Origin: Candidatus Omnitrophota bacterium
Lineage (GTDB): Bacteria; Omnitrophota; Gorgyraeia; Gygaellales; Profunditerraquicolaceae
Assembly: GCA_030693145.1 (NCBI GenBank)
Contig: JAUYBI010000071.1
Span: forward strand, 10,354-74,353
Direction of reading: 5' to 3'
Length of the DNA: 64,000 nucleotides
In this document: positions 6,378-38,600 of the stretch, in pieces
How the letters are laid out: each line of letters opens with the position of its first letter
Numbering within the stretch: position 1 is the stretch's first letter
Translations under genes and position numbers: made by a program
Notes under the pieces: generated by a model
What the model was told of the DNA's origin: nothing
The model's input: only the letters and a program-made list of their open reading frames with translations
Database searches by the model: none

Positions 6378-6379
6378 AT

Positions 6380-7261: not shown

Positions 7262-7321
7262 GCTAAATAGACTTTTTTAAATACACCTTTAAATTTTACT
7301 TGACTTTTTTAAATATCTACG

Positions 7322-7372
7322 AATACGACCCTGTTTCCCAGCCAATCGGGAAATAGGGTCGTATTTTTGTCG
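7322..7372 (+). terminator. intrinsic-terminator-like hairpin (repeat family D) after tadC
   Basis: aatacgaccctgtttccc-agccaatc-gggaaatagggtcgtatt forms an 18-bp stem, followed by TTTTTG. Half-copies occur at 811-830 and 8021-8047. Confidence 0.5.
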
Positions 7373-7456
7373 GTGCCCCTATTAAAATTGTCCAGTCTGT
7401 TTTTTAGTTAGATTTAATTGATTATTACGTCAATTATATTAGAAAGGAGAGCTTAA

Positions 7457-8388: not shown

Positions 8389-8668
8389 GAGTGTAAATAG
8401 AAAAGGTGCAAAAGGTAAACTTAGAGTAATCTAAGGACACAAAGCCACGGATCCTAAAATCAAGAAATAGTGTCAAGGACAGCCGGGTTGCCAGTACCGA
8501 CGAAAGTTGGAGCTGACAACTCATTTTTTATTTAAGAACTTAATAAAAAATTTTAAAAACGTTTTAGTAATCTGTAACCTTATGCAAAGAAGCTTCATTA
8601 AAAAAATGAAAAGTCTTGGGGTAAGGGGAAGTATTTATTTTTTATTTAATACTACAGGTAAGTAAAAA

Positions 8669-14600: not shown

Positions 14601-17600
14601 TATTTGGAGATGAAATTCATCAGATTGCACAATCGCCACATTTAATAATGGGGATAAAAGGAGAACCGATAAAAGCTGATTTTTTAAATAGGATTGGAAC
14701 AGAGTTTGATGGGTTTTCCGGATGGTTAAAGAAAAAAGCAGCGCTCAGTGGCGAAGTCAAGGATTATAAAGATTTTGGTAATTGGTTGATAAAAGAGCAT
14801 TTCATTAGAAAAGTTGGCAATCAAGGATATTTAGAGCAAAAACTTGTAAAAGAATTTATAGAATATAAAGAGAACAAAATTGACATAAATAAATTCCGCG
14901 ATATTGAGAATAAAGAATATAAAGATTATCGGCTAATGCTTAATGCTTTTGCAGATGCCTGGGGAATGGTTAAAGAACAACAAGGAGGATATGGTTGGTC
15001 AGGAGATAAACCTTTGGAATTAGAATTCAGAGGCAAGCCAGTGCCTATTCATGAAGGTAAGCTAGCTGCACAGATGTATTGGAGTTTAGAAAACATTGTT
15101 ATTGCGCGTTGGATTGCTGCAGCACGAATGGAAGGATTTAAGGGGAGTGTAGATAAAATTATGTTCAATGAGAAGGGGGAATCTCGTATAAGTGCAAGCC
15201 CCGAGTCCCTAAGAGTTACACCTATGAGTATAGTAAAAGATTTTAATTATAAATCTTTCCTTTCTGCTACTCCCGAGTGGGCAGGGCCTATTTCTCGGTT
15301 TATGGGCGTAGGGGTAGAAAGAAGGAATACGCTTATGAGTGAAATAAAGAATTACTTAAAGAGAGAAACGCCGAAAGATCAATTTCAGTATCAATTTAAA
15401 CTAGAACATGTAGGATATTTTAAAGATTTTAAGAAAGGATTAGAACAATTTAGCTATGACGGTCCAATTGTTATTAAGCCCGCCTTTACATACCACAAAG
15501 ATAAAATAGCAGAGATGGTTGTTGGTTATGCAGAACGTACAAATAAAGTCCTGTTTGTTATGAAGGACGGTGGTTTTGAAGTATACCGTAATGGTATTCG
15601 TGACAGTATGATAGTTGACAAAGAAACAGTGAAAAAAAAATTATCCGAAGGAGAAAATATAGCGGTTTTATTCGACCGCCCTAATTTAGTAGGGTATAAC
15701 TTAGATTTTGGGAATAAAGGGGACATCCCTGCAAGTCGGCTTAGTAAAGATCCTAAATATATTACTGTCATTGATTCGGATACTACTGCTACTGAGTTTA
15801 GGCATACATTGGGAAGAAACCGTGGAAAATTCACAGAAAATGTTTGGGTTCTTGATAGGGAAGGGAAGATAAATGATGTAGATAAATTGATAAAACAACT
15901 TGAGAAAAATGAAAATAAGGCATTGGTCGATGCTTTTTATCAAGCATTTAATAATGTTGCTCATCAAGGGATGATTTCCCGGTTTGACTTGCTAAGGAAA
16001 TTCTCATTGAATGATTTAGATTACAATATAGTAAAAGATTTTCAAACAGAATTTCAAAGTAGGAACAAGATGGATGACGATATCAGCCCGCGTAGTGATA
16101 TGGATTTGGCTACCGCTATCGATCGTTCAGCAAAGAAAGAAGCCAAAGATTTTGTAGAAGTAGCTCAAAAGTTTAAAGGTAAGCTCAATCCTGCGCAAAA
16201 AAATTATGTAGAAAACTGGATAAAAGAAACCGAAAAGATAAGTAAACAAGGAATAGAATTTAAGGGTAACGATGTGAATAGAGACGGAGAGAGGTTAGCC
16301 AGAGAGATTGGCTGGGCAAGATTGGATTTTAGCGAAGCTACAAAAGTTTTTAGCGAAACTTATAAACGTAAGGAACTCGCAGAAAAAAGAATATCCCTTA
16401 TGTCTTCTTTAGCTATTCCGCGAGAAATTAATTGGGTAGGAATAGCTAAAGAAGGAATGACGAAAGATAATTTCCAAAAAGGCCTTACAGCAGAGATAGA
16501 GAAAACAGGCCTTTCACATAAATACTCTGAAGGTTATAGCAAAGATTTAGTTTCTTCAATGCCCCAAGACGTATTTAAAGGCAGGTTCACATATTTAAAG
16601 AGTCCAGCCATTACTGCTGGAGGAATTGGGTTCTTAAATATACTTACACAGCTTTCTTCTTCAAATGAGGATGAGATAGAAAAAATTAAAAATATACTCC
16701 TAAGTCTATTTGATTTTAACAAGGCACAGGAGTTTGCTCTTAATTTAAGAGGAATTTCTACTGATTCTGCACTTTATCCATTTTATTTGGGATTCTTGGT
16801 TTCTTCGTTAAACATTCATAGTAGAGAAGAATTAAGTAGTGTCATAAAGACGAGAGAAGCTTATCTTAAAAATGTATTCAATGGGCTCCCAGATAATGGA
16901 ATAAAAAAATATTTAAGTGACCGAAATTTGATACATTTTGGAATTCCAACTTTTGACGGTTATTCTTTTATCAATAATTTCCGCTATTCGCAAAATATTG
17001 TTCGGAACAGAGGGTTAGAAGAAGCAACAGTTATAAGAAATTTTGCGTTTCCCAAAGCAGCTATTCAACAAAATAAAGGGTTTCATGAAGACACAAGTTT
17101 TGAAATTGCAAAACTTCTTCATAAATATGATATTACTTTACCCCAACTTTACGGTGTCGCTAAGTCAAGTATGGCCTTAGTGGTGCAAAGAAAGGTTACT
17201 CAGCTCCCCAAGTTAAAAACAGTTAGCAGGATACGCGAAGGTTTAGATTTTATGAATTGGTTAAAACAAGAAGTTGTTCCTGATACAGAACTTCATTCTT
17301 GGCTGTCTAAAAAAACAGAAATACTTAGTAAGGCGAATAATAAATTAGAAGATAAATTGAATAAGGTGTATGGACGAAGCGGCGCAGCTAGGTATTTATT
17401 AAGAGGTATAGATAATTATCGCATTAGGAAAGAAATTTATAACTATAATAAATTAACCACATCTACCGATTTGGAAAAATTAGAAGAACTAATTGGAATT
17501 GATTCTAAGGCCTCCGTTAGTATTTTTAATCCCAAATTGTCTTTTAAGGAAATTGAAGATTCCGTAGCAACCATAAAAGGCTTATCCTTGTTGGGGAATA

Positions 17601-20600
17601 AAGTGCCTTTGGGTAAAGTTACTCTTTCTGAAATATATCAGAATTACGATATCGCTAAGCTTAATGGATTATCGACGATTAAAAATATTCCTCAGATTGG
17701 ACTTTTAGCTGATTATGACTTTGATAATTTACCTATGGATATTTCGGATACTTTAGCGAAATCTGCGCCGATTATTTTACCCAAAACAATCACTCAGGGG
17801 ATAATTAATAATCTTGGGTTATCTGAAAATGAAGCTAAGTTAGTCTTAGGGGGAAGCAGGCCATTAATCGTAGTAAAAAATCAGGATAAATTTACTATTT
17901 TTGAAGCAGGCGGCATCAAAAGAGAAAACATAGATAACGCCGATTTATTTGATCTTGTAAAACCTATTACAACGAATGAATTTCTCAGCCAAGGCATGGA
18001 AAAGAAATTTGTTCAAACCTATACCGATTTAATACCAGAGGTGGAGTATAGAGAAGATTTAGGATATACAGAAAAAATGGGTAAAAAGTTATTTGATAAA
18101 GCGATTAAAGATATGCATTTGTCTGATATTTACAAATTCTATGCAGATACAAAGGATATTTCTACCCTAAAGACAGAAGAAGTGATTTTTAAACAATTTG
18201 GAAGAGAAATAAGAAGAAATTTTGGTTTCAATCCTGATATTTGGACAATAAAAATGGCATTAGATAAAAAACAAACAGGTTGCGTTACCGATACGCAATT
18301 TGCGGCTTTATTGGCAAATACAGTTAATATGCCCGTAGAGTATCAGAGAATAGAGGGCTTATCCAGGCCGCATTTCGTACCCATTATAAAATTTGCTGAC
18401 GGCAACAAAAAAATAGTAGATTTTACACCTTATTTAGATGAAACAAAAGTTTCATTTATCAGCAAGCCCATAGATATAGAAAATGATTTTGAAAGATTAT
18501 CCGGCAGTTTTAATCAATACCGGCTCAAATTAGGAATAGATACGGCAGATAGCTACTTAGATGCCCAAAGAGAGTTAAGAAATTTGCCTAATACCGGCCT
18601 TACTGCCGCTATCTATGGAAATATGGGAATGCATGATGATAATTTAAAACATTTATTTAAAGCTCTTGAATACGACCCCCAGTATCATCAAATTAAAGAT
18701 AAATTAGAAAGAGAAGGATTTATTATTCCTGTTGAATATAATGGTAACCAATATCTAATCGACAAAGAAATCGCTTCTAATGAAGTATTAAAGAAACAAC
18801 TTGCGCAGATTCCTTTACCTGAACGCAACATAATCTTAGACAAAAATAGCCTGATAGGAAATAACGGTAATAGTATTACAGAGGGTGTGGTGCGTAAAGG
18901 TGGAGTTCTTTACCTTAATTCAAAGATTTTAACTGATGATAATAAAGAAATTTTATTTCAAGCTTTAGAGTATGGTCTTAACGGAATAAATCCTGAGAAG
19001 GGCGTTGTCCATATTCTTAAAGCAGCCAAAGTTACTAAGCTGAAAGATAATGGCATTGGTTCCGGTGTTCCTTCTTTAGAAAGAATGTTTACATACTTTA
19101 AAGATAACGGTCACGGTCTCTCTGAAGAAGTAATTAACGATGCGGCGATATTTATCGGAGAAAAGCTAAAATCCGAGGAAATAGAAGCAATAATTAATGC
19201 TTGGCCAACTGACGGCGGCAAAGGGGTGGTGGATAGAAGCAGAGTAGAAGAAGCAGCTAAGTTTTTAGCTGGCCGGATTGCAGACTATGGATTAGGATTA
19301 CTGGCGCAACGGGCTGTAGAGGAAGCAATGGCCGATGCGAAAAAATTATTATATTCTGAGAATGAGATAAAGGAAGCGTTAGAATATTTGAATGCTCAAA
19401 AGGAAGCGGTTGAGAATATGTTTGTCTTGAATAATAAGCTTCGGGAGGAGTTTAATACTCTCGATCTAAAAGATTACGCTAAATTATTAGAACAACATAA
19501 GCAGCTGCAAAGAGAAGTTAATCCGGGGATGGAAAATATCATAAAAATCAAGATCGAAGCCGCGATATTAGATGAAATAATGAAACTTCTGGCGGCCCCA
19601 ATTGAGCAGGTTGCATTGATAGCCGGTAAAGCAGAGAATTCTGTTTTTTACGCAGATGAGCTTATAAAAGTTAGTACAACGCAGGCAAGGAATACAGGTT
19701 ATTCAATTTCAGGAAAAGAAGAGGATGCGCTTATTTCGCGCATTGTTGATTTGCGGAATGAAGAAAGAAATTATATTTTATTACATAACCATCCATTTGG
19801 CGTAGATGTGGAAAATTCAGGTTCGGATAAAGAGCAGATAGAAAATTTCGCGGCATTTATAAGCGTTATAGGAAACAATAAAGCGCCTCTATCTTGGCTT
19901 GCGGCTCAACGTTTGGATAAGGAAGGCAATTGGGAATACATTCCGTTTACTATAACAGATAATGGTAGGCCAATGCCGCTTGAAGCAGTAGAAAAGCGGT
20001 TTGGTAAGGCAATTAGCTATTATCCCGGATTGATTGAACATTTCACTAGTCATATTGTGGCTGGTAAATTAAGCAAATTGATAATAGATAAAGCTAATCA
20101 GCCGGCAGAAACGGATTCTGGCGAGCCTGTACGTGGGCAATCTCCAGCGCTTCCTCCTATTACACCAAACATACCTATGTCACCGTCTTTACGAGATGGC
20201 GGGGCGCAGCGGGTTCCGTTTGGCTTATTTAATAATAAAATAACTACCATATTGCCACAATTGGCGGCTCGGATTGGTGAACTTCCTGGTATTACTTTGA
20301 GCAAATGTTATGGCAGCGTTAATCCCAGGGGCCCGCCTGCTGGTTCCACGACTGACTCTTTAGTTGTAAATGTAAGTAGTGTAGCAAGTGTAGTAAGAAA
20401 CGCAGTTGGTTTAGTTGGAAAACTGTCAGGTGCCCAGAGTGTTGACTCCAGAAATGGAGCAAGAGGGCAGGATGCAGAAGGTGCGTCCAACAGTAATATA
20501 GGTAAGAGAAGTGGAGTAAGTTCAATAGGAACCAATGGTGAGGCAAAAGGTGCCGAAACCCGAGGTTCTATTCGTGCGTATGGCTTCCGCAATAAGATTA

Positions 20601-23600
20601 TTAATGATTTAAAGAAGTTAATCCTCATTCCTCAGTTCAAAAATCCGACAATTCCTGAATTAAATCAATTTATTAGCGCAATATTAAGGGATGGCTCTTG
20701 GCCTTCTGCGAGAGCAGAAGTTCTGGCCCCCAAGAGCACCCTTAATACAAATAATTATTCGCAGGATGGGGGATTATTCAAAAATGGCGATATTCTTAAA
20801 GAAATTAATGAATTAGTTAAAGTAATGGCTAAAGATATTGGTATAGAACGAATGAAAAAGGGAATCAATACTATAGAAGATACTATAGAAGACAAGTATT
20901 CCGAGCAGAATGAGGATATACAAACGATACTAACAGGAAAAGCAGTGGCGAAAATTATCGCAGATAAAGGGATTTTGTCTGTGGAGAATATTAATAAAGA
21001 AGGTTTAGAGATTGATGATGAATTTTGGGCTAAGTTGGAAACATATAAGAGGATATTGTCTGGGTTAAGTGATTCAGGATTGGACGCGGAGAAGAAAAAG
21101 GCTAAAGCTGGTGATAAGTTGGCTGGAAAGTTGGTTAGAATTATTGAAGGCATAAGAGGATTAACATATGAAGAAAAGATAGAGATAATAAAGGGAATGA
21201 TAAAAGATACACCATGGAAAGAAAGAATAAGAAAATTGATAAGTCTCTTGCCGTTAGAATTAAAAGAAGTTTTGATAAGAGAAGTGCCGGGTGAGGACAT
21301 GTCGAAGGTCGAGAGGGTTTTAGAGGAGCGTCCGTATAATGGGAATACTGAGCAAATATATAAAATTCTTGAAGAACTCAGAGAAGGACAGAAAAAAATT
21401 GTAGCGAAAGTAGATAGAAACGAAGCTAGGCTTGATGAAACTGAAGAGGCACTAGAAGATGTAAAACAAGAAGCAGGAGCAGCAAAACAAGAAGCAGTAA
21501 GAGTTAAAGAAGCAACTACGTTATTAGGTGCAGAGGTAGCTAAAACTAAGGCAATGGCGCTCGATGCACGTAGACATGCAGTAGGAACAGGGGATGATTG
21601 TTTGGTTGGCGCGGTTAAAGATCCAAATGTCAGAAGAGAAGCAGATAGAAATCTTCGCATAGAGGCTGGTGTTGATGAATTTGTTCCCTATGTGGTTAAG
21701 TATTTATATACTGGTATGAAGATAATCAGGCAAGATTATGATAAGTTTATTGAAAAATATAGGACTGAAGGGAACTGGAAGAAGGTAGAAACTTTAAAAC
21801 AGGAAAAATTGACCGTAGTGAAAGTAAGAGAAGAAAATAAAGCGATTGAATTGCTTTCAAAATATTCTGGAAGAATAAGCATAATAGTTCAAAAGTCTCA
21901 AGATCTACTGCATGTTTATCAGGTAACAGGTTATAACTCTGAGACTAGAATGATTTCATACTCTGAGGATAATGGAGAAGGCCATAATGTTGGATATGGA
22001 GAGATTGCTTTGGATGAAATCACTAAGATCTACGGCGAATATGTGTTTGTTTTAGAGGAAGGGGTAGTTAATGAGGCAGGATTAAAAGCAAATGTATTAA
22101 CTGAGAAAGAGCAGAAAGCAATTAAGAACGTTGGTGGAGCTGGTGTGGATGCCAACAACAATAACGGTAGCGTCACAAGCAACAGTGCAAGCAATAGCGT
22201 AAATAACAATACTGGTAATACAAATAGTAATAACAGCGATACTAATAGCAATGATAATACTAATAATGGCAATAGCAACAATGGCAACGGCAATACTGGC
22301 AATACAAATAACGGTAATGGTAACACTGGTAATACAAATAATGGCAAAGGTGGTAATGGCGCAGCAGGCAATGGGGTAGCTGGGGTTGCGGCGTCGCCTG
22401 CGGCTCCTCGCGGAGCAACCGGAACAGTAATAATAGGGAATGTGGAAGGTCTTTCTTCTGTTCTCAAAATAAGTAATGGCCTTAGCCCTCCGGAAGCTAT
22501 ATTCGTCGAACTTGCCAATACCTTCCGCAGTTTAGCTAACCAGTTAGAATCAAGATTGCTTCGCCCCTTCGGGGCTCGCAATGACACCCATAATACTAAT
22601 GACACTGCCGATCTTCGTAATGCAATAGATGTCCTTAATAATTCCGCCAGCGCCTCAGAGAATTTGTTTGGTTTGATGGATAAAGCAGTCCGCCGCGATG
22701 AGGACGATGTTATCACAGCTCTCCTTAAGAAACTCATGGGGGCGATTAAAACCCGCGGCCTCAAGGACCTGAATGGACGTTATTTCCGCGCCGCCCGCTT
22801 AATCGCGCACAGATACGGGCTTCCTTATTCTTCAATGGTCGAGCTTGCCGCCGCCTTTATGTTACTTAATGAAACAGATGATTTTATCCGAGCGCTAAAA
22901 GATGAGGCTGATGTGAGAGCTGAAGTATTAAAGGCTAAAGAAGGCGAGATTGCTTCGCTCACTGCGTTCGCTCGCAATGACGGGTTAGTGGTGACGAATA
23001 ATGCAGCAGCTTATGATTTATTGAATAATGTATTAGATATCTTGAATAATTCTGCAGCTAGATACGCATCAGACGGAGGGTTAGCAATAAATGCGATAAG
23101 GATTTGGCTTGAGGAGGTTCGGGCGGGCATAAGAAGCATAGTTGATATGGCGGCAAGCGTATTTAGGGTGATTAGCGGGTTCTTATTGCGAGTTGCGCAG
23201 CGTAGAGGTAATGACGCCTTACCGGATTCTAAGAGTTTGCCGGGCGAAAATAATAATGAAAACGCTTTCTTGCCGGCTCAAGATGGTAACTTAAAAAATA
23301 CTTTAGTTGAATTGGCAAGCCGCCTATTTGGTTCAGGCCGCGGATTAATCGCGGATTTACAAGGCGCAAAAGATGTTGATTCACAGAGAGTTGTGGATAC
23401 AAATAAACTTGTTTCAGCGATAATGGTTATAATCGGCACATCTTTGGTTATTATATCCCAGGCTCCTCCATTGGTTATGATTGCGTATTTAGTAATTGCA
23501 ATTAACCAATTAGCCACGGGAGGAGAAAATGTTAACGATTATAAAAATTCAAGAGATGAGAGAACAGATGGCGGAATTAGAAAACCAGTACCGCATTCGG

Positions 23601-26600
23601 CGTTTACAGGAATTCCGGCAGGCGGCAGCTTTGGAGATGCTGAATTTGAGAAGTATTTTAACAGAAAATCCGAACAATTAAGCCGTCTTTATATAGAATC
23701 AAATAATCCGGCCAAGCTTGGCGCACGCCTAGTGCGCGGCCAGTCTGCGCAGCTTGCAAATGCCCATCAAACCGACGGCGGCGCAAGAGAGCCTTTAGCA
23801 GGATTGGTAGAGGTTTTGAGAGTAAAAGATTTATTGGCTACAATTAAAGCCCGCGCGCAGAATGGAAAGAATCTTAATGGGCGTGTTTATGTTGGCGGTG
23901 TTTGTCGAGATAATATAGAACAAAGGCCACTACCGAAATTAAGATTACTGTTAAAGCAGCTAACAAAGTTCCTGACATTTTATCAATCTCCTTCCTTATC
24001 AGAATCTGGACGAATAAGCAAGCCCATTATTAACGAACCTAATAAACCTATAACAATTAAAACTTTAATTAGAATTGTAAGCTTAATAAAATCCGCTGCT
24101 ACTAATGCAGCAAGCAGAACTTTGGAAAAATCAAGTAAAGTTTGGGAAAGGGCTTTAAGTTTACTTTTAGAAAGAAACATCATCACAATCTTTCTATCAT
24201 ATATTAATAATTCTGTCAATACTATAAATTTTGGCACTAAAAAGAGACAGGGCCAGGAAACGGTTAAATACCAAGCCTGCGACGGCGGCGCATTTAGCAG
24301 GATGGGTTCATTCCCTGTAGGTTTACCATTTACAAGGTCCACAACGCTTCCCGTAGAACTACCTATTTCTTTACCGGTTTCTCAGGATGGTGGGAATAAT
24401 GTTAATTTAACTAAATTGGCAGCACAGGCATTCAGTTTAGATCATCGCGGTTTCATTGTTTCTGTAAGAAGAGTCTTAGGCGGTATTTCCAAATCTGAAG
24501 TAAAAGATGCTCAATCGCTACCGATAGCCCAGACAAACATTAAGAAGTCAATTTTCTCATTAGCTCCTCCGGTTAATGGCTTGATTTCGCGTTTGGTAAG
24601 CGTAATTAACCAATTAGCCACGGGAGGACAAAATGATAAGCATAGACAGAATTCAGGAGATGAGAGAGCAGATGGCAGAGCTGGAAAATCAGTACCGAAT
24701 CCGAAGATTGCAGGAATTCAGGACGGCGGCAGCAGTGGAAATGTTGAATTTAAGGAGTATTTTAACAGAAAACCCGAACAATTAACCAGCCGTCTTTATA
24801 TAGAATTAAAAAATCTAGCTAATCTTGACGCATACTCTGGGCTTAGTCCGCCTGCGCAGCTTGTAATTGCCTTAATAGCTGCAGTGGTATTTGGCCTTTC
24901 CGCTTTAACCCATCAAACCGTAATAAATTCCATATATTCCACTTTAAAATCCAGGGGACGGTTCTGTTTTTTACCATTAAGTTCAGAAAACAGAACCGTC
25001 CCCGTGTTTTTGATATTAACTTTAACCACTACTTCACAAAAAGGAGGTGAATCATGTCACCCATTAAGCTCGAAGGCATCAGGATCCACCACATCATTGA
25101 CTCCACAAAAGATTATTCAACTTTTGCTGCAGCTCGTGAACACGGTAGTAACAAGATTAGGATCTTCCTGGTTAAAGATTCAGGCTCTGTCTATGCGCAT
25201 ACTGGACAGGAAGACACATGGAAGGAGATTGTCGGATCGGTCGCCGCCTACATCAGGTATTCCATCAGCCAAGCCCGACAATATGTTCCCGTCTACAAAG
25301 TCAATACAGCCTACGCTACAAACTAAAGCCGGTTTCTACGCTGCAACAAAGAATATTGTGATTTCTATTATCGCGTTGTTCTTTGTTGCGGCGCAGCCGG
25401 CAGCTGCGGCGGAAGGCTCGAAATTATCAGAGATGGTTCTTTTTGGAGGGGCTATATTTTTAATAGCAGCAATAATATTCGGTTTATTCCTCGCGTTTTC
25501 GATAAAGATGGGTATTCAAAAAGCAGAAAAAGCTATTGAAGAATATGGGAATAATACCCGGAGGATCGAAGATAGTGTTATAGCTAACCAAGTGATTGAA
25601 GCTTCAGCGATACATATAGAATCTACAGCAACGTTAAAATCTCCTCCGAATGCGTTATGGGTTTTAGAAAAGCTAACTTATCTTGGATCCGGAATTATTA
25701 CTCTATATTTTCCGATCTTTGGATTCATTAGGTTATCCTCTTGGATGATTGGTATCGGATATGTTTTCCTTATAGTGGGCGGTATAATAATTATACATCA
25801 TCTTGGTATGATGAAGAATAAAGCTAAAGGCATGAAAGTAGCGGGAGAAAGAACTCCTGCACAGATAGTTACAAATAATGGCCTTTATAGATGGATTCGC
25901 CATCCGCTTTATTTAGGGCAAATGATATCAGTAATTGGGTTTGTTTTAGCCTACACTAATTTATTTGCTTTACCTTTAAATATAATTTGGTTCTATTTAG
26001 TGAATAAATTGGCTTCTGCGGAAGAGGATTATTTGGTTAGCGTGGCTCCTGGTTATGCGGGTTATAAGCAACGGACAGGTAAATATATATATATACCAGG
26101 GTTTTTAGCAAAAAATAACGATAGTGAAAAAGAAGCAGTAAATAGTGATAATCTGTTTGATGGAGGGACTCTTATCGCTTTGGAAGCGGTATTAAGCGTT
26201 ATAATAATAGATCAACTTCTAAAATATATTGCCACCAAACGTTTACTTCCGCATTCTGAATATATTGATAAGGGTTTGAACTCTGATGGTTCATATCGCA
26301 GTAGAGGAACGACCGAAATTTATTATAATGAAGAGGCAAAAATTAAACTAATTGGACGGCTTGCACTTGTTAATGTAAGGCATAGTTCTGGCTCAAAAAC
26401 AGATAATATCGCCGTTGTTAAAATTGGTATTCTTGCTTCTTTGTTTGTGTTGTACGGCGCCTATTTTTCTGGTAACACTGCCTTGACTGTAATTTTTGTT
26501 TTAGCTGCTGGGGGATTCTTCGCTACCATCGTTGATATAATTAAATCAAAGTTTAGAGGAGCAATAGATCCGTTTATGTATGGAGGTACCTTTAATAATG

Positions 26601-29600
26601 AGCGGAGATTCGTTTTCTTCAATTTCGCAGATATATGTGTACTTACAGGATTGTTTCGCGCAGATTCCGGGGACGCATTACTTAATTTAAAAGTTGGCTC
26701 ACGGCGCGACGGCGGCAGGGTTCAGGGGGTGTTTGCGGTTTTAGGTGTTGGCGCATTAGGTGTGTTTTTCTTAATTTCCAGCTTGAAAGATTTAATTCTG
26801 ACAGTTTCTGGCGTAAACGGCATTAGCTTGGTATGGGTGGCATTAAAGCTGTTAATGGGCAGCAGCCTTATTTTCTCCAGCTATTCGTTAAATTATCTTA
26901 GGTTAGAGGCGGCAAAAGTAAATGGGCTTGTAACAAAGGGGCCATACAGTTTCTCAAGAACTCCTGTTTACTTGGGGTATATTTTAGCCGGTACTGGTTT
27001 TGCGTTTAGTTTAATTCTCTCCGGGGAGTTATATTCAGTATATTTTGCGGCTAATTCCGCGGCTATAATATATTTATATTTGGGAGTTTATAATGAAGAG
27101 AAAACGCTCGCGAAACAATTTGGAGAAGAGTATAGAAATTATCAAAATTCCGTTCCGAGATGGTTTGCGTTTAAGTTATTTTGGAAGGTGATAGTAAAAA
27201 AAGCTGATATTGACAGCCACCGGTTAACACAAAAAGACGGCGGCGCAGGGGCGTCGATAATTGAAAAGTTGTTAAATGCAATTAAACCCCGCGCGGAGAA
27301 TCTTTATTTGATTGCTTCGAGGTGGGATAATCTTAAATCTATTTCTTCTACTTTCCGCTCTACTTTTATCAATCTTAAATCTATTTCTTCTACTTTCCGC
27401 TCTACTTTTATCAAGCGTAAACCTATTTCAGCAACTTTCTCCCACGTTCTGGCTATGGTAGTTTCAATTCCGTCAATTCTTCTATTAATTGATTTTAGCT
27501 CTTCGCCAAATACCCTAAACTGGCTTCTTAGATCTTCAATGAGCACCGCCACTTCTCCCGCGGTCATTGTGGTTTTATTTTTAGCATTCTTATCCATAGC
27601 AGTAATTATAAGCGACAGAGTGAATTCTGTCAAGAATAATAATTTTACCCTTGAAATTAAGCGCTCTTATGCGATTAATCCAGCCCGCGACGGCGGCACA
27701 GGGACGATGTTACAGAATAAAATTGCAGCTACAAATATGGAACCAGAGGTTAAGCTTATGTTAACACGCAGGGGTTTCTTGGAAATTGGCGCTGGTATTG
27801 TTGGCTTGGGATTAAATCCGGGAATAGGGGGCATTAAAGAATTAGCAAATAAGTTTGCTGGTTTATTGAAAGGCGAAGAAATAGTTGATTTAAATAATCT
27901 TTCTGTTGACAGAGAGGCGTTAAAGCAACACGTAACAAAATTGGCTAATATCGGTACAAGAGCAGCCTATTTTAGAAATACAACTAATATTAACAAGGCT
28001 AAAGATTATATTGTTGGTTGTTTAGAGAAACTGGGATTACAAAGAATACATAATCCAATAGGGAAAGGATATATTTTACAGCAGTTTACAATGCAAGAGA
28101 TTTATGTTTATCCTAGAGACGATTATCCTTATTTAGACTATGAGTTAAAGTCATTAAGAAATCAAGAAAACATATCGTCTGAACAAACATCAGATCAATT
28201 GCTTTCCGTAAAGATAATGTCGTCACTGAAAACATTGCTATCGTTTTTACAAATCCGAAAAGAGGATAAATCACTTTTTGAGCTAAATATGACCATGCTG
28301 AAAGAGGCTGGTATCAAAGTTCCTGGACCATATGGTCCGGTAAAAGTACTTAAGAATGATTTAATCGTTGAGGGCACAAATATTATTGTTAGAATACCCG
28401 GAAGTAAGAATCCTGATAAGAAAGTTATTCTGGGTGCTCATTATGATTGTTTCAAAGGTGTTGGCGCTAATGATAATGCAACCGGGGTTGCTTGTCTTTT
28501 GGAGGCAGCAAGGATTATTTCGAAGTTTAATTTTGACGATACAATAGAGATTATTTTCTTTACCGCAGAAGAGGACGATAGTTTAGGGAGCAGTTTTTAT
28601 TTAAAAGAATTATTTGAAGAAGAAAAGGCCAATATAAAAGGGGTATTTATTGTTGATATGATTGGTAATAATAAAGGAAAAGATGAGCCTGAAGGGGAGG
28701 AAGATCTTAATTTACTGTATGATAGATATAATCCGGAAATATCTAAAAAGCTAATTGAAGAGACTGTAGAAGCTATACAGAAACACGTTTCGGATTTTTC
28801 AGTAACGGCTAATGAAGATGAGGGTTATGATAGTGACGATGACCCATTCCAAAGTGAAAGAATACCTACGATATTGTTTAGCGAAGATACCGGTGAAGAG
28901 CTTACAACTCAGAATGAGTTTTTTAACGGGGCGCAAGACACAATAGAGCATATAGATTTTGAAGGGTTTTTCCCCAAAGCAGTAAAAGCGGTTATAGTTT
29001 CCGTTATCGTACAAAGTAACTCTAATAAAGACGGCGGCGTAATTGGTTCTGCTATTATATTACTGGTTCCTGGCATTTGGAACTCAATGTATATGCAGTT
29101 GATAGGGGTGAATAGGCCTGGCATAGACCGCATCCTGTATGAAACCGGCCCGCCGGAAATTAAGATTGGAGTTATCAAATATTTATTTAATAGATTTAGC
29201 CCTGGCTCAACCAGTGTTTCTCAGCCTACCGTGGCAGGTATTTCCTTTAAAGCCCGCGCGGAGAATCTTTATTTGATTGCTTCGAGGTGGGTTAGCCGTT
29301 TACTGAAATCTTCTTTGATAATTCGTACGTCTTCTTCTATCTTAGCAAGTTTACCGTTCATTCTGGTTAAATCGTCTTTTATCCCCGCTGTCCTTATATT
29401 TAGCGTAGTAATATCTTCCCTGCTCTTTGCCACCATACCCATTGTGCTGTCTAATTTGTCTCTAAGCGCATCTTGGCCTTCACCGAGAAGCTCAATCCCT
29501 GAATGGACCTTTTCGAGGATTACCGCAAATTCCCGATCTTTATCAAATTCTTTGAGTTTCTTTGTCTCTTTCTTCATGCTAAGCAATTCCGGGAACACAT

Positions 29601-32600
29601 TACTTAATTCCCAGCGCGGCGGCGGCGCAGTTTTTATTCTTTTCGGTGTTTATGATGCGTTAGACGGTCAATACAAAACCAAACACCAAAAATCAGCACA
29701 ATTAATAATAGGGTTACTACCGCAGTCATTTCTATTATTTAGTATGATGAGAGTGAAGATGGCGGGGAATCGTGAAAATCCCGATAAGAATAATAAAAAT
29801 CAAACCACCAATCAACATAAACAGCAAACCGTTCATAATTATTCAACTCCTTTATTAAGCATAGTGGCAATGATAAAGGCTGCCATAAAAAACATCAAAC
29901 CTACCATAAATACACTAAGACGAAATTCAATTCCTGAGACGAATTGTCCGATTACTAACGCCGCAAATACTAATTTACCTATATCGTACAAAGATTTAGA
30001 CAATTCCTTTCAATTCTTTCTTATAAAAGATTCTGGGATAAGCAGATCTATTAACAAAGCCAAGAAAGATTCAATGGCGGATAGGGTGATGTTTGCGGGG
30101 GGTAGTAAAGAAGATACCCAAAAGCGCAATAATTATTATTATCAGGAACGTGAAAATCAAGATCATTTATCCTCCGAATTTTTCAATAGCGTTAGAGCCC
30201 AAAACACCAATATCACAGTAACACCCATCCCTAATATGATAGTTAATAATTTAATAAAGAGTTTTTCCCCTGAGAATATGGGATTTAGTATTACAACAGC
30301 AATTAGTAATTTACTTACATCAAATAGAGTTTTTGCTAATTCTTTGGATTGGTTCTCATTTAGCCGCATAGTTAAATATATACTACTAGAAGAGATTGTT
30401 GTCAAGCCAAATTATTTTATAGTAGCAAACGATGGATCTGCGACCGACGGCGGCATACTTAGTTCTGCTATTGTATTAGCGGCTCCGGGTGTTTGGAACT
30501 CAATTTATATGCATTCGATAGAAGGGATCAGGACTGGCGTAGACCTTTTATTATATGAAACCAGTCCGCCGTATACTGTTATTCTTCCTGATGTTTTCCT
30601 CCCAATAGTTTTCGTCTTATTATTATCCGTAATAACAAATTCTAAACTAAATTCAGCAAGATTTAGCCCTGGCTCAACCAGTGTTTCTCAGCCTACCGTG
30701 GCAGGTTGGTTTGTGTTGGCCGGGGCTATTTTATTTGTTACCCAGCCGCTGCTTACCTTAGGGATACTTACCGTGGCAGGTATCTCCTTAATTGGTGCGG
30801 CTATTGTTGTATATGGGGGCTTCGCAGGCATTATTCCTGCCGGGGCCCCCATTGCAACAAGAAAGGGCAGCGTTCCCGCGGTTGCGGATGGGGGAAGAAA
30901 AGTAAATATTGATAAAGTTACGATGACAGGCGATTGGCGGAGCTCAATAGCTAGAGTAGAAGAAATACTTAAATTGGTGGAAGATGCTTGTTATCGCGTA
31001 ATTATGGTAAAACAAGGGAAAGTCGATGCTGATACGATAATAAAGATAAGAGAGAATTACAAGGGAAGAAAACGGGATACAGCTATAGATATGAAGCTGG
31101 GTAAGATAATAATAAATGATAATAGAGAAACATTGCGTATATATAATATTCTGAGTAAACAGCAAAAATTTGTGGATATTTTTAATATTTCTATTAAAGA
31201 AGATGTCCGCGGAGCGGCAGCTCAAACATTTGGAAACCTGGCAAAGGAATTAAATATTCCACTTGAAAAGATCTCAGAAGGGTTGATGGAAAAAGGTGTA
31301 AAATCAGGAGAGTTTGAAACAGCCTTTGTTTTGTTAGAAGAGGCAAAAGACAAAATATTTATCGCGGTACAGGAGATATTAAATATCGATATCAATGAAG
31401 AAGGAGTATATAGCATTGGAAATGAAGGTGATTTTATAGATGCCCAAGGCAGACGCATAGATTTATCTGACTATAAAGTTGTAAGCCATATTCATTATCA
31501 TCCCGGAAGAAAAGACGGATATCCTGTTCCGTCAGCGTTTGATTTGGGTTTATATACGCAGCTATTGTTTAGTAATAATGAATTTATAGGCATTGTTTTT
31601 GGCAACGATACTCAAGATAAGCTTATATCCAAGGCGTTTGTCTTAAAAGACGGCAGAGACCTGGGAAAGTTAAAGCTCGACATAGAGAATTTGCTAGAGG
31701 AGAGGCAACTCTTGGAAGAAAAAGGCGTAACGGAAGCTAACCGTAAAATATTTATTGGTATGTTTGAAATTTTTATCAATGAATATTTCCGCATAATTCA
31801 AACCGAAGATTTTAAGATAAACGAAAATTGCGGAAAAGAAGCCGACGGTGGAGAAATAATAGACCCAGGCACTTATGAAACGGCTCGGAAGATAAACTGG
31901 AATGAATGGTTTTTAAAATATGACGCGGTATTTTTCCTTAATATAGTGACGTTGTTTACCCCTAGGGATGCTAAGGCAATAAGCAAGACTATAGAAAAAC
32001 TTAAGGAATTAAGAAAAATTAATCCCGGTAAGTTTAAAACAGCGTTAGAAGAAAACAAAGATTATATAAGGGGTAAGATTCTTAACAATATGAGGAGTGT
32101 TGCCAAACAGGTAACACATACAGAAGAATGGCTTTTTGGTGACGTGGACGCATTATCATACGATAAATTGGATATGTTAATGGAAGTCTTTCCAGAAGCA
32201 TTTATAGAAGCAACAGAAGAAAGAACCAATAGCGAATTAGTTGGAAACTTTAAACTTGCGACTAAAGGTAAAGAGCTTATGCATAAGGCAACAAATTCTA
32301 TGGGGCAAAGACTATTGGAGCAAGAAAATAAAAATGTAAGATATTTATTGGCTACCTTATTCACAGAGGGCATGGATAAAAAAGAAGAGCTAGATAACAT
32401 TAGAGAAACAATAGCCGCTCTTAGTAGAGCGGATATAGAGGACAATATTTTTGTCTACTTATCTTTATTAATAAATACAAATGTAAATAAAGAGTTAGCC
32501 CCGAAGGTCGCCAGAGCAATAGAAGGTTTCTTAGCCGAGAGGGGGATAAAAGGTAATATTAATCCGGATAGTTTAGTAGCAGAATATAGCAAAATAATAG

Positions 32601-35600
32601 AAAATGGCCGAAGGATAAAGCATATCGCCATTAATTTAGAAGCTGTATTTGGGAAGGATGTTTTAATAATATGGGATAGTTTATATAATTCTTTACAGGG
32701 CAAGAGGCAGTTTCAGATAAGCCGGATAGTGGAAAGTATCAAATCGGGTGTGGGGAGCCTGAGCAAGAAAGGCGCGGTGAATGTTCTGGTTGCTTCCGGT
32801 GATATGTTAGGAGAACAAGGCCACAAACAGATTATCGAACCATTTAACAGGGCATATAATAGCGGCATAGATCTGGATAGTAGAATAAAAGAAGATTTTG
32901 GAGTAACGGAAATAAAAGGTGACAAGGTTATTATAATCCGCGCTGAAGAGAAGAATGTGTTGAATGGGGCGCCCGCCGTAGTGAATATAATAACAGACGG
33001 AGAAATGCCTGTTGGGATTATAGACGCGGTAGTAACCGGCCTGTACGAGCAAGGGGAAAAGAGTTTTATCAAAGGGTTTATGAATCTGTATGAAAACGGA
33101 GCAGAATTAGTATTGGGTTACAAAGTACTTGATATAAATGGCGTAAGGGTAAAATTGAAATACGATAACGAAGAGAAAAAAGAATACCCCGTAATTTACA
33201 TTACTATAAGTATGTACGACGTCGCTAAGATGTTAGAAACAATAGCCGGAAAAAACTGCGCTTTGGACGGCGGTAAGGATTCGCAAGATACGGGTTATCT
33301 ATTGAGTAAAAATGAGGTTCGCGCGGCTACTTTGGCTGGGGTGGGGTTAGTTGTTTTATCCTTTATTCTTTCAGCGTATGGTTTTGAAGATTTAGCAATT
33401 GCCAGCGGAGCGATTGGGTTTATGTTAACTGCTGTCGTAGCGATAACCTGGTTAGCCATTAAAATTAATCCTCAGATTAAAGAGGTTTATTTAGAGGCGC
33501 TGGAAAACGCTAATGAGCCGGTGGCCATATCAACCGTTTCCGGGGAGGAAGAAATTTCTAATACAGTTTTACCAATGGAAACAGAAATGAGAATAGAAGG
33601 GGATATTATTCATCACAATTTCTCTCCCAGCCGGATCGGTGAAAATAAAGCAAACGGGTTAATCACTAAAACAGTTGCAGCAATTGATAAGGTTAACAGC
33701 GCCGCAGGCGTTAATTCTGCATATATGAGCCGCTTAGATATGTTAGCCGGATTATGCCTTTCTAACGGAATTATCGGAGTTTGGTATTTTATTAAATATT
33801 GGAATGCGTATGGAATGGACCCGACCAAGACCTGCGAACAGTTGCTTTTGGGTAAGCAGGTATATGGTTATCCTCACCCGCGGCAAGTCGATATCTGGCT
33901 GGCTTGGAAAGATAACGCGCCCCTGGGTTATGCCGTAGCGTTAGGGCCAGATAAATACCGCCATATAGCTTATGTAGCGGTTGTTCCTGCAATGAGAAAG
34001 CAGGGAGTTGGGCTTAATTTAATGAAAGAGTTTTTTGAATATGCCAGGAGCCAGGGAATCGCAGAGTCATCTTTACATGTTAACGCAGATAATCTAGGGG
34101 CCTTGGGATTATATAGGAAAGCAGGTAGGTTTGCGGATAAAGTAGTAGAAATGGTAAAGGAAACCCCGTCCGGCATTGCTCAAATAAGAATGGAATTTTC
34201 TATTAATCGCGGGAAGGGAGACAACAAGCAGGCTGACGGCGGTTTGCTTAGGGCTGGGCCGGTGTTTAGTGAACGTGCTTGTGGCGATATTGATCGATCC
34301 CCAGCCAAACTAGGATTACGAGAATTATGGCGCTTAGGGTTAAAAGGGCGGTCATATCAATCTTCCTCCAAATTTCCTTTTGGGCAGACAAAAATTGCTC
34401 CTACCACTGAAAGAATCGTTGTTAATATAAAAGCAGTTTTCCACGGCATCGCTGCTTTAAGGAAGGCTTCTGAAATAAATAAAGCAATTACTAATGCCTG
34501 GAATAAATTTATTAAAGCTTTTGCAATTAACCGTCTGCGCGAATCTGTCCAAAATACATCTTCTTTCATTGAAAAAATACTACCATATCTTATTAGAGTT
34601 GTCAATAGCAATAACTTTAGAGATTCTTCGTCGCTGACGCTCTTCAGAATGACGAGGAGAGTAATTGAATTTGACGGCGGCAGAACGATAGTAGATTTTC
34701 TAAAGAAAGTTCCGTTAAAAGTTTGGCTTTTGATTCTCGCGGCTGTTTCACTTTTATTATTCAACGTACCTACGGTAACCGGTGCTTTGGCTGTTCCGGT
34801 TCTGGTGGTGGTGGGGATAACAATTTCCGGGACAACAATCGCGATTTTGGTACTTATAGTAATTATAGGAGTGTTGGCTGTTAAGAAATCTTGGCCTGTC
34901 ATAGCTCACCTTGCGGGTTTTGCTGGGGTATTGTTTGGCGTTTCGAAGTTACCGTTAATATACGCAGCAGCAAGTAATTTTGGTATGTTAGGCGCGTTAG
35001 GGTCATTTGTTGTTTCTACAGGAATAATCGTTGGCGCGATGTTCTTCTTCTTCGCGCTTATTGTAGATTATAAGAAATACGGGAAAGCAGAATTACATTA
35101 TACAGGTAAAGGCATTACTTCTTCCTTAGAAGACTATCAGATGCTTGCTTTGCAGGATATCGCGAAAGAGTATTCAAAAGAGTACTCAAAAAATAGTTTC
35201 AGCACAAAGAAGCTTTATTCGTTATATAAAAATAATCCCCGTTATCTAATAGCTGCGTTTGCGGCTGGTTTTATTATCGCGGCTGGTTTTATATTATTTA
35301 TTCCTACAGTTTTTATTGCAGCTACTATCTTAGAATCGTTGGCGTTAGGCGTATTGTTCCCTTATCTTGCGCATGTATTTCTGGATTTCTTTGGTAAATA
35401 TTCATTCGAGAATTTACATAATGTTGAAAATTTACAAAAGATTAAAGATTCTAAGGAGTTTGAAGAACGAGCTAAAAAATATAAAGGCGAGCTTGAGCGG
35501 GTGCGCAATCCCGAGACAAGGGAAAAAGAAGGAACTACGGATTATAGTGTGTTTATCTACGAATCAAGGATTATTCGCGCTAAGTTAGCCTTTCGCTTCC

Positions 35601-38600
35601 CGCTGGAATTCGGAATTGCCCAATTTTTTACACAGAGGCTCGTTTTCGCAATCGGTTCATTCGTTCTCTCAAGGGCGATAGTGCCTTTGATTATCTCCAA
35701 AGAGACGGCAATGGGCGCGTCTTTAACCACAAGCCTCGCTAATTTACCTTGGGGGATTGGAGCTACTTTAACTGGCTTAGGATTTGCTTTAAGTATAGAA
35801 GGAATTTTAGGTATCCTGATTCTTGCTTTTTTCCTGGGCACATTACGTATTCCTGAAGAGGCAAAGAGCTTGGTTAAAACTTTTCAGAATAAAGGAGGGA
35901 AGATGGGCGAGATTTTTATTACAGCCTGGAGCCCATTAAGCAGGAATGATTTATTCGATAAAAAAACAGACTCTGCAGATTATACGGATTTCAAAATTAA
36001 GATATACACAGTTGTTTTCTTAAGCAAGTTTTTGGCTTTCCTGCCGTTAGCGGTATTTACCGTGTCATTATTTACCGCGCCCTATCTGGCTTTAGTTATT
36101 GGCGTAATTTTGGGGGTCATTCTTTTAAGCAAAAAGATGAAATTAATAAACAATTTTTGGTTAGGTTTTTATTCCTCTCAACTTGAAAATTTACTCCGGA
36201 GCAGCGGAGGCTTATTTATTGTGGCCGGAGAAATTGGGATGGTCGTTGCTTATGGCCAATATATTCCGGTGGTAAGCTTAATTGTCCAAGCATTTGAAGT
36301 GGATGCGTTAAAGTGGGGCAATCAAGTAGTTGAGAATGTTGAGTATCAATCGGGAGTTTCTTTCTCCGGGGAAGTTTATCATACCTTAGGCGGAAAAGAA
36401 GATTTGAACGTTTGGTGGAATGATGTTTATAAAGAAAGAGAACTGCAGGAGAGTAAAGTCTTAAAATCCTCCGAAAGATTATCTCCGATCGCTGCGGTAA
36501 AATTGGAAGCTATGAATAAACAAATAGCCAGTGTTCCAGAAGCTTATTATTTCCAAAAGATAGGCGATGGCAGCCAGGCGGTTAGGGTTTATCCTCCGTT
36601 AAATGATGGGGAAATAATGAACGCAAAAGTTGTGGATGTGAATGGATCGGTTGTTTTTGAGAAAAATTATACGCGCGGGCCGCCGGTGATCTTAACTGTT
36701 GAGCAGCTTGGTTTAGGCAACAAGACTATTCTTGTAAACAATCAGAGTTACAACATCAATTTTACCTCTTTCCCTTCCCCCTTACCTAAAGGATATGAAG
36801 CAGCGGTGGGCTTAGAAGACAAAGACGGCTCATATGTTTGGTTTAATGCTACCGATTATTTCTTCAAAGATGAGTTTCTACCCGACGCAAATACGAATAA
36901 CGCAAAACTGGATAAACTGGTTTTTGATAACGGGCTGAGATTACCCGATAACAGCAGTGTAAAGGGCGTTATAGATATAAATATACCTGATAATAATCAG
37001 ACACTTCGTTATAACTTCGCAAGCGCAAATATAAACGGAAAGCCTGCGAACTCCTCCTACTATATGCCAGGCGAAGCAAATGCCTCTAACAGCCCGCTTG
37101 ATAAATCGAGAATTTATCTAAATGCGGAAGAGTTTGCAAAATTACATTCAAATGAAACCACGGCCAGCGTGAATATGAGCGAAAAAGACATTAGTGCTCA
37201 AGTTGCGAATTTACTTAAGTCAGGGTTTGATAATTTTACGATAGCCGCTGTTACAGAGAAGAACGTAAAGGTGATAGATACGATTATAGAAGAATTGAAC
37301 AAGCCGAGTGCAACGGTTAATGTAGTTAAAACGCCGTCCGGAAGTGAAATTAATAAGTCGATGCCTACTGCAAATGAAACTGAAGTAATTGTAAACGAAA
37401 CCGGCTTAAAGACATTTGTGTCAGATAAGAATACTGTTCGTTATTATCCGGAAATTATTAAGGTTACCGTAAGCTCAACTAATAAAACTGCAGGCGTATA
37501 CGCTAAGGATATAGATAGTTATAAAGGTAAAGATTGGGGATTCTGGTCATTTATCGGGAGATATCTTGACTGGAATGATATAGCAGTTACTTATACTGAT
37601 GCGCTTGGCAATCTAAGGCAGGGCTATGTAAGCGAAGACGCGGACATTAATTATTCTTATGAGGAAGTAGCCGAGTTGCTAACAAAAGAAGAGACGGCTA
37701 AAAACATTACGAACCCGAATGTTACAATTCCTCCAGTCACTGTGCCTAAAGAGTACAATCGAACGAAGATTATACCTGATTTTCCTCGTGAGGGCACAGG
37801 CGGCGGAGGAGGAGGAAACGAACAATTTCAGCCAACGATAGGGTTATCAATTCCGGAATGGTATTTTTATTTCCCCACTACACACAGCGGGTTTGAGCGA
37901 TTTGATTGGACAAACAGCACAAACCTTACCGGCTATCCAAGTGCTAAGGTAGCTTTTTATACGTTATATGTTAGAAACGCAACTACAGGAAGGGATGATT
38001 TGATTTTAAACACCGGGAATAATATTTCAACTATGGATATTTTCCCGGGCATTATATCTGACGGCACGTATGATGTTTCCGTGAGGGCATTGTCCGGGCA
38101 ATGGGCAGCTTCCGGGACAGTGGTAAGTGAAAAGAGCGCTTCTGTAAGAGTAAACGTAACTACTGTTCCCGATCCGGCGCTTAATTTAAATGCCAGTATG
38201 TCAGGCATAAATCTTACTTTCAATGAAATTTTTCCTCCTATGGAAACGTTTATACTTCTTACAAGGTCAGACGGCGTAATTGAGATGATAAATGTTACTG
38301 GCGAGAATCATCATGTATTCTACAATCTGCCTGAGGCCATGCATAATGCTAAGATAGTGGCTATAAACGGGGTTACCAGCCGCGGCAATATCACTGATAA
38401 CAACTTTAATTTTATTTACTCTAATCTGACATGGCCCGATATGCCGGCGAGTAATTCCACCGATGTAAACGGCAGGGCAGTTATTGAATTCCAGAACGGC
38501 ACAAGATTACTTCCCGCAAATATTAAAGAATTATGGGTAAAGGTAACCGGAAGTGAACCCCCGTTCCGAAATATTGGAACCGGCGCATTATCTAATAATG

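Follow-up and report, generated by a model that had tools for sequence, protein, structure and literature searches.

A twin-arginine-like segment precedes the M28 peptidase module of a DGG-delimited giant open reading frame in Candidatus Omnitrophota

The window described here is a 64,000-nt stretch of a Candidatus Omnitrophota genome (assembly GCA_030693145.1, contig JAUYBI010000071.1, positions 10,354 to 74,353) that holds part of a giant open reading frame (ORF). On the plus strand, a stop-free frame of 18,445 codons extends from 8666 to 64000 and runs past the 3' end of the window. The encoded protein begins with a signal or anchor at aa 22-40, followed by a Peptidase_C39 domain, and its further Pfam domains are PEMT/ICMT (twice), LspA, M28, GNAT, HEAT and cytidylate kinase. 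About 54 transmembrane (TM)-like segments were called in a KD19 scan at a threshold of our own (KD19 >= 1.5). Our subject is the M28 metallopeptidase module, which is bordered on both sides by the tripeptide Asp-Gly-Gly (DGG) and preceded by a segment resembling a twin-arginine translocation (Tat) signal. A first-pass annotation had taken the 5' end of this module for that of a once-separate exported enzyme, with its Shine-Dalgarno (SD) sequence, ATG and signal peptide. The features of the locus are, in order:

8666..64000, plus strand: giant ORF, first ATG at 8669, more than 18,000 codons
9347..9778, plus strand: Peptidase C39 (double-glycine peptidase) domain (PF03412, E 2.9e-6, aa 263-371, profile positions 34-130)
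19211..34681, plus strand: DGG-rich modular region with 20 of the 22 DGG sites, 35-769 aa apart, 10 of them encoded exactly GACGGCGGC
27689..27697, plus strand: upstream DGG junction (GACGGCGGC), N-terminal border of the M28 module, aligning with the DGG before M28 in the relatives P0128 and P0129
27746..27760, plus strand: GAGG, 8-nt spacer and in-frame ATG (Met6365), judged incidental
27764..27784, plus strand: twin-arginine-type motif TRRGFLE, conserved as TRRKFLE/TRRKFLK in P0128/P0129
27776..27832, plus strand: weakly hydrophobic, Gly-rich h-region FLEIGAGIVGLGLNPGIGG, with 17 uncharged residues after Glu
27902..29020, plus strand: complete M28 metallopeptidase domain with an insert, Pfam core at 28379-28960
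29030..29038, plus strand: downstream DGG junction (GACGGCGGC), four residues after the last M28 helix and directly followed by the hydrophobic VIGSAIILLVPGIW

The peptidase is whole, as the first-pass annotation had proposed. The PF04389 match (E 1.2e-29; 103.8 bits against a cutoff of 21.3) covers profile positions 1-179 of 193, and the AlphaFold2 (AF2) model of the module has a mean pLDDT of 78.8, being confident at module residues ~65-135 and 225-440 with a core pLDDT >90. Foldseek aligned the model with full-length M28 aminopeptidases of S. griseus and Aeromonas (1tf9, 1amp) at target-normalised TM-scores of 0.77-0.81, and the PDB sequence matches of the module are likewise M28 aminopeptidases. 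Module residues 1-60, which include the twin-arginine (RR) segment, are modeled with low confidence and lie outside the fold, while the last M28 helix (424-440) ends four residues before KDGG. The five canonical ligand and catalytic positions H248, D259, E291/E292 and D320 are retained. The column of the final zinc-ligand His, which is His in 23 of 35 sequences, is Asp381 in the window copy and its close family, a replacement that may alter metal binding or activity. At window positions 28838-28852 the motif DSDDD stands in place of SDH, as it also does in the relatives L006, P0001-P0003, P0124 and P0126; P0128 and P0129 read GSSEM there.

The arginine pair ahead of this domain occupies aa 6368-6369 of the giant frame, so it is not at the N-terminus of the translated protein. 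TRRGFLE agrees with the Tat consensus S/T-R-R-x-F-L-K at six of seven positions, and the pattern [ST]RR.F[LIVM] occurs once in the giant protein against 0.057 times in shuffles. The loop ahead of the segment is rich in K/R. The h-region that follows, IGAGIVGLGLNPGIGGI, has 17 uncharged residues and a KD19 maximum of 1.26, which is under the 1.5 TM threshold; it is thus uncharged and moderately hydrophobic over a length usual for Tat signals (~12-20 residues). It is a low-confidence coil outside the fold in the AF2 model.

The same arrangement recurs in a second lineage. P0128, P0269, L088 and P0129 are proteins of Candidatus Omnitrophota metagenome-assembled genomes (MAGs) with an M28 module 33% identical to that of the window, and L088 is encoded in an uninterrupted frame of 15 kb. 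Their layout reads ...ARIYQ-DGG-KSEKSVGYGNGI-TRRKFL(E/K)R-FTELTGLFVLGPKVFSLNWVASVQA-LESEK...-M28-TM-...NGF-DGG. In a MAFFT alignment, both the DGG and the TRRxFL of this group align with those of the window. The motif always stands upstream of the M28 core, ~22-23 aa after the upstream DGG in the window and 12 aa after it in P0128, P0129 and L088. In these three proteins TRRKFLE is preceded by GNGI and by no Met; the function of the motif therefore cannot depend on initiation there, and its retention at 33% module identity without a start codon argues for a functional element rather than a decaying relic. The h-region of L088 is less hydrophobic still (KD19 below 1.2). Both lineages thus have h-regions too weakly hydrophobic for ordinary TM helices, which is a property reported for Tat-dependent segments (Tooke 2017 PMC5449189). 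After its M28 domain L088 has a TM segment (KD 1.74) before the next DGG, and the module sits between cytoplasmic-type modules, so that the order DGG, RR segment, M28, TM, DGG describes a coherent out-and-back topology. Together these comparisons support TRRxFLE as a real, selected Tat-like element. The window segment is a candidate member of the Tat-signal family, and the "textbook" Tat signal of the first-pass annotation was overstated: the motif is above chance and its h-region uncharged, but it has Glu for Lys, no AxA site and no profile match.

Two nearer embedded relatives lack the arginine pair. L006 (CAYHAI010000052.1) is a 21 kb uninterrupted frame whose sole similarity to the giant protein of the window is the M28 module, at 48% identity. 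Upstream of this module it has MPRFSPLKIAAGIAVAAVALVGFAGITHA, a Sec-like segment with a Met and single Arg residues only; the Met lies 8-9 residues before the h-region, with no SD sequence. P0124 (5,194 aa) has an embedded M28 domain similar to that of L006, without a clear signal. Such internal signals are not confined to the M28 module: elsewhere L006, itself an Omnitrophota giant ORF, carries two internal twin-arginine segments, SRRGFLKTVFATAVGVVLLETGC (SRRGFLK...) at aa 297 (nt ~890) and SRRKFVKKTIGAIFFLSL (SRRKFVK...) at aa 568 (nt ~1703), neither of them with a nearby Met. The first passes the Tat profile TIGR01409 (20 bits against a cutoff of 16.7), and it ends in a lipobox-like LLETGC.

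The closest stand-alone M28 proteins (P0001-P0005 and P0125-P0127) are 243-421 aa long and 37-50% identical to the module; stand-alone and embedded M28 domains are about equally distant from the window copy. One cluster of stand-alone relatives belongs to candidate division WOR-1. P0001 and P0003 lie in ordinary gene neighborhoods with stops on both sides. Homology to the stand-alone proteins begins at giant aa ~6413, 49 residues after Met6365, spans the catalytic domain and an N-terminal helical sub-domain, and ends at the same place, the C-termini of the relatives aligning within ~5 residues of the window KDGG. The pre-domain length counted from Met6365 is 51 aa, compared with 36-44 aa in the stand-alone relatives. 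These are independent genes, with no flanking DGG and no RR motif in any of them; some of the closest (P0002, P0005) have no hydrophobic N-terminus. Among the 253 Met-initial proteins retrieved, nearly all of them M28 homologues, 186 have a hydrophobic N-terminus and nine are loosely RR-like, so an export signal before M28 is the norm of the family and the Tat consensus is not. Since stand-alone homologues exist, descent of the module from an independent gene is plausible, and it probably derives from a stand-alone exported M28 gene. The proposal of in-frame gene capture stands to this extent: the module looks like a whole gene product in frame with natural protein ends, but the SD sequence and ATG are not its intact start. 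A tblastn comparison of the other giant-ORF modules with the neighbors of stand-alone M28 genes (including a PEMT gene near that of L003) found nothing beyond M28, and hence no sign of a fused operon. A metagenome scan with an M28 alignment, which carries generic M28 motifs, returned 80 loci that were ordinary M28 genes of ~30% identity and were uninformative. No relative was found in a scan of viral contigs, and nothing scored in a protein search with an alignment of the N-terminal halves.

The borders of the module are part of a wider pattern. Of the frequent tripeptides in the giant protein, DGG is over-represented most strongly, with 22 occurrences against 4.8 expected (z 7.8), and Asp precedes 22 of the 96 GG dipeptides where 5 would be expected. 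Twenty of the 22 sites fall within aa 3516-8670 at intervals of about the size of a protein, including the site that the first-pass annotation had correctly placed at 27689. The PEMT/ICMT (twice), LspA, M28 and GNAT domains fall inside DGG-delimited modules with near-full profile coverage. DGG is likewise frequent in P0128 (10 against 0.5 expected), in P0129 (26 against 1.5) and in the L088 frame (19), and PfkB, two methyltransferases and M28 each lie within one DGG-delimited module of these relatives. There is no such enrichment in L006 (0 in 7,050 aa) or P0124 (two sites, both inside domains). Across 65 non-redundant sites D-G-G alone is invariant; K or R is frequent at position -4, where no acidic residue occurs, and the upstream residues are polar (N/S/G). 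The codons are also constrained. The reading GACGGCGG is used at 12 of 22 sites in the window and at 14 of 19 in L088, where GAC makes up 19-24% of Asp codons and GGC 32-38% of Gly codons:

19211, 23774, 24281, 24722, 26708, 27236, 27689, 29030, 30446 and 34673, also 33266 and 34235, plus strand: DGG sites encoded GACGGCGG(N)

Every copy of GACGGCGG shares the same strand and reading frame and sits at a module border, and the remaining ~49 kb of the window has none, so we rejected the idea of a Chi-like or strand-biased DNA motif. The bias points to a constraint at the codon or nucleotide level, which may reflect either selection for accurate decoding of a critical motif or a nucleotide-level function.

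A candidate protease for the DGG junctions is encoded at the start of the same ORF. The C39 domain retains its catalytic-type motifs, QVDNNCG (Q222-x5-C228-G, with Cys228 and the oxyanion Gln) and EHFVLI (with the His). It is most closely related to C39 proteins from MAGs of Candidatus Omnitrophota, and a search with the C39 region retrieved three short partial Omnitrophota proteins only. Self-cleavage by C39 has been proposed for Omnitrophota giant genes with an N-terminal C39 domain, with the cleavage points unknown (West-Roberts et al. 2023, bioRxiv 10.1101/2023.11.21.568195). The combination of DGG junctions with an N-terminal C39 peptidase makes proteolysis a better route to a separate M28 product than internal initiation, and the best reading of the sequence is that any such product would arise in this way.

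We lean, with moderate confidence, towards the view that the TRRGFLE segment is a functional internal Tat-like signal that exports or anchors the M28 module of this DGG-delimited giant ORF. It is hypothesized that the giant gene was assembled from whole-protein modules joined at D-G-G junctions, and that TRRGFLE and its weak, Gly-rich h-region would put the Zn-peptidase on the outer side of the cytoplasmic membrane, the neighboring modules (methyltransferases, GNAT, kinase-type) remaining cytoplasmic. This could happen by two routes. The segment may act as an internal start-transfer element, as in dual Sec/Tat membrane proteins, in which case no initiation is needed. Alternatively, a cut after the upstream DGG, for which the C39 peptidase is the candidate enzyme, would leave the arginines near a new N-terminus (23 residues here and 12 in L088). 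The GAGG and ATG at 27746-27760 are judged incidental and would be dispensable under either route.

Several observations weigh against a functional Tat-like signal released at DGG. TIGR01409 and PF10518 matched neither the window segment nor that of P0128, even at E<=10, and Glu replaces Lys after FL in the window motif. In the window, the stretch from the h-region to the M28 domain has no AxA signal-peptidase site; P0128 and P0129 have VQA in the c-region position. The motif is conserved in two independent lineages only (the window and L088/P0269/P0129), and the nearer embedded homologues L006 and P0124, at 47-48% identity, are without RR. Applied to the N-terminal anchor, the positive-inside rule predicts that the C39 domain is outside the cytoplasm, and most DGG sites flank modules that need cytoplasmic cofactors. 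Lastly, the DGG contexts do not have the amphipathic, hydrophobic -4/-7/-12 leader pattern of classical double-glycine substrates.

A more far-reaching proposal, which we regard as possible and offer tentatively, treats the whole ORF as a polyprotein. The D-G-G junctions, preferentially GAC-GGC-GGN, would be sites of C39 cleavage in cis, freeing dozens of ordinary-sized proteins with localization signals of their own. A cut 23 residues upstream would unmask the twin-arginine signal of the M28 module, and the folded peptidase would then cross the membrane.

The segment might instead be an ordinary TM or signal-anchor helix inserted by Sec/YidC, its arginines being positive-inside residues and its likeness to a Tat signal a coincidence. 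A protein with ~54 TM-like segments, a K/R-rich loop ahead of this one, the Sec-like segment at the equivalent place in L006 and the failure of the curated Tat hidden Markov models would all suit such a helix. We nevertheless consider it unlikely, given that hydrophobicity is under the TM threshold in both lineages and that a 6/7 match to S/T-R-R-x-F-L-K kept in two lineages would not be expected of a generic flank.

According to the relic interpretation of the first-pass annotation, the GAGG, ATG and signal are the non-functional, fossil 5' end of a once-independent exported M28 gene that was recently captured in frame. The sequence elements themselves are present: GAGG at 27746-27749, an 8-nt spacer (TTAAGCTT), an in-frame ATG at 27758-27760 (giant-frame aa 6365; the annotation had placed it 5 nt downstream, at 27763), the encoded peptide MLTRRGFLEIGAGIVGLGLNPGIGG and, downstream of the ATG, MLTRRGFLEIGAGIVGLGL followed by the complete M28 fold. 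Stand-alone homologues in ordinary gene neighborhoods, module ends that match natural protein ends, and the Met of L006, 8-9 residues before its own h-region, all fit such an origin, as do three Met codons within the 21 residues after the upstream DGG, a density equalled in just 0.4% of such stretches. A pair of perfect repeats around the block also points to recent recombination:

27288..27326, plus strand: left copy of a perfect 39-nt in-frame direct repeat (encoding RAENLYLIASRW) that brackets the M28 block
29253..29291, plus strand: right copy of the perfect 39-nt in-frame direct repeat

The copies are 1965 nt (655 codons) apart with unrelated flanks, and the pair is either a trace of recent recombination or a site at which the block could be deleted in frame. 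Neither end of the 1965-nt block falls on the ATG or on a DGG site, however, so the block does not mark the capture of a gene with its ribosome-binding site. The SD-like element is also not above chance. GGAG or GAGG stands at -16..-5 before eight of the 257 in-frame ATGs of the giant frame, where 13.6 would be expected from a frame-wide background of 5.3%, and the folding energy around ATG 27758 (-10.7 kcal/mol for -30..+33) is at the 39th percentile of 256 in-frame ATGs. The start is not conserved, and with chance-level SD and ATG and unremarkable structure neither a relic nor an active start at 27758 is supported. The RR motif is absent from all stand-alone homologues, and the Met/RR pair is not kept in the embedded relatives. 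RR has been retained in a lineage with a 33%-identical module and no Met, where a neutral relic would have decayed. We regard the relic as improbable.

It is very improbable that the segment has no membrane role at all, being a flexible Gly-rich linker before an M28 module that stays cytoplasmic within a multi-enzyme giant protein. The weak h-region, its coil in the model and the stand-alone proteins P0002 and P0005 without a hydrophobic N-terminus would agree with a linker, but the RR motif is conserved, the L088 module has a good TM before the next DGG, and most M28 relatives are exported proteins.

Active translation initiation at 27758, which the first-pass annotation had offered as a source of a separate product, has hardly any credit left: the GAGG, spacer and ATG are in place, the N-terminus MLTRRGFL would have ideal Tat-signal geometry and some window genes (7457, 6380) use SD-like sequences, but SD-like sequences before in-frame ATGs are rarer than background, RNA structure is average here and far stronger than at the real starts 7457 and 8669 (-3.4 and -3.7 kcal/mol), promoter-like sites on either strand are not in excess (10 against 8.5 +/- 2.2 in shuffles), the giant gene's own start at 8669 has no SD sequence, the relatives with the same RR have no Met, and L006 has a Met without an SD sequence.

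Giant Omnitrophota genes reach about 147,000 codons. The present gene resembles the C39 group of these giants in its size (over 18,000 codons), in its numerous TM segments and multi-enzyme make-up (methyltransferase, GNAT, signal peptidase II, HEAT), in the C39 domain next to an N-terminal signal or anchor, in the T2SS-F genes upstream, and in having Omnitrophota MAG proteins as the nearest relatives of its C39 and M28 modules. The giant gene is immediately preceded by two T2SSF (PF00482) genes at 5532-7261, in line with reports that Omnitrophota giant genes are linked to type II/IV secretion loci; together with an ORF6N-domain gene they occupy window positions 5532-7969. The gene differs from published giants in its recurrent DGG (GACGGCGG) junction and conserved internal RR signal, neither of which is described in the two papers on those giants. 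It also differs from them in that the 18,445 aa encoded within the window gave no SecA Pfam match, whereas divergent SecA DEAD or preprotein-binding domains mark the C39 group; as the ORF extends further, this does not settle the matter for the whole gene. A 2026 preprint (10.64898/2026.06.07.730766) suppressed internal signal-peptide calls in giant proteins as chunking artefacts. Neither of the two giant-gene papers (10.1101/2023.11.21.568195; 10.64898/2026.06.07.730766) mentions Tat or twin-arginine, and our literature search found no paper pairing DGG with Omnitrophota and nothing on Tat in Omnitrophota.

Internal Tat segments of low hydrophobicity are known from dual Sec-Tat polytopic membrane proteins, such as the actinobacterial Rieske protein Sco2149 (Keller 2012 PMC3471235; Tooke 2017 PMC5449189). 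The plan that the M28 module would share with them is an internal twin-arginine in a cytoplasmic loop, a weakly hydrophobic segment and then a globular, metal-containing extracytoplasmic domain. In those proteins, however, no helix follows the Tat-dependent one and the cargo has redox cofactors, whereas further TM segments and thousands of residues would follow here unless the chain is cut at DGG. With the C39 bacteriocin and peptide ATP-binding cassette (ABC) exporters (PF03412), the giant protein shares a papain-like C39 domain with the Gln/Cys/His signature and candidate sites that end in Gly-Gly. Here, no ABC transporter is fused to the peptidase, and the candidate substrates are internal junctions of the same polypeptide rather than short N-terminal leaders. 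Viral polyproteins and polyubiquitin are cut after Gly-Gly by papain-like proteases. They too have many units in one ORF, short separators ending in GG and a protease encoded in cis, with no sequence relationship to the present protein, which is encoded on a bacterial chromosome and whose modules include integral membrane enzymes and a predicted exported peptidase.

With a module delimited by DGG and an Omnitrophota giant gene headed by C39, the question of cleavage becomes directly testable. DGG recurs at the borders of whole-protein modules, with a codon bias common to two genomes, in an ORF that starts with an intact double-glycine peptidase, and this provides a testable handle. The one module that belongs to a normally exported family has a conserved internal twin-arginine-like signal in front of it, and the junctions and signal together predict specific neo-termini. 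If true, the polyprotein reading would supply the missing cleavage points of Omnitrophota giant proteins and would be the first bacterial case of targeting signals activated by polyprotein processing. On this evidence, signal peptides called inside giant proteins should probably not be dismissed as artefacts. The M28 block illustrates the in-frame assembly of complete enzymes with their targeting signals.

Other modules and sites near the M28 block are also of note. One DGG-to-DGG module, of 183 aa at 26168-26716, is a complete lipoprotein signal peptidase (LspA, PF01252, with the motif FNFAD) and lies between two membrane methyltransferase modules of the PEMT/ICMT type. Its presence prompted a lipobox search of the window's giant ORF, which gave no convincing lipoprotein signal. 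On the minus strand, at 27633..27605 and ~125 nt before ATG 27758, a perfect sigma-70 consensus (TTGACA-17-TATAAT) runs antisense within the giant ORF and overlaps a minus-strand hairpin with a T-run (27632..27613); by its sequence it could be an antisense promoter.

Duplications are also found beyond the 39-nt pair, and with it they make the region a mosaic of very recent recombination. A stretch of 42 nt is perfectly duplicated in tandem at 27329-27412, within the module immediately preceding M28, and encodes NLKSISSTFRSTFI twice; a perfect 42-nt repeat occurs at 29198-29239 and 30665-30706. The consecutive modules 29030-29155 and 30446-30571 begin alike, with DGG and VIGSAIILLVPGIWNS or ILSSAIVLAAPGVWNS followed by ... 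LYET(G/S)PP, and their DNA, 78% identical, includes a 42-nt stretch that is 100% identical. The LYETSPP type is a conserved membrane module, which also follows a DGG in P0129 (aa ~1610-1660).

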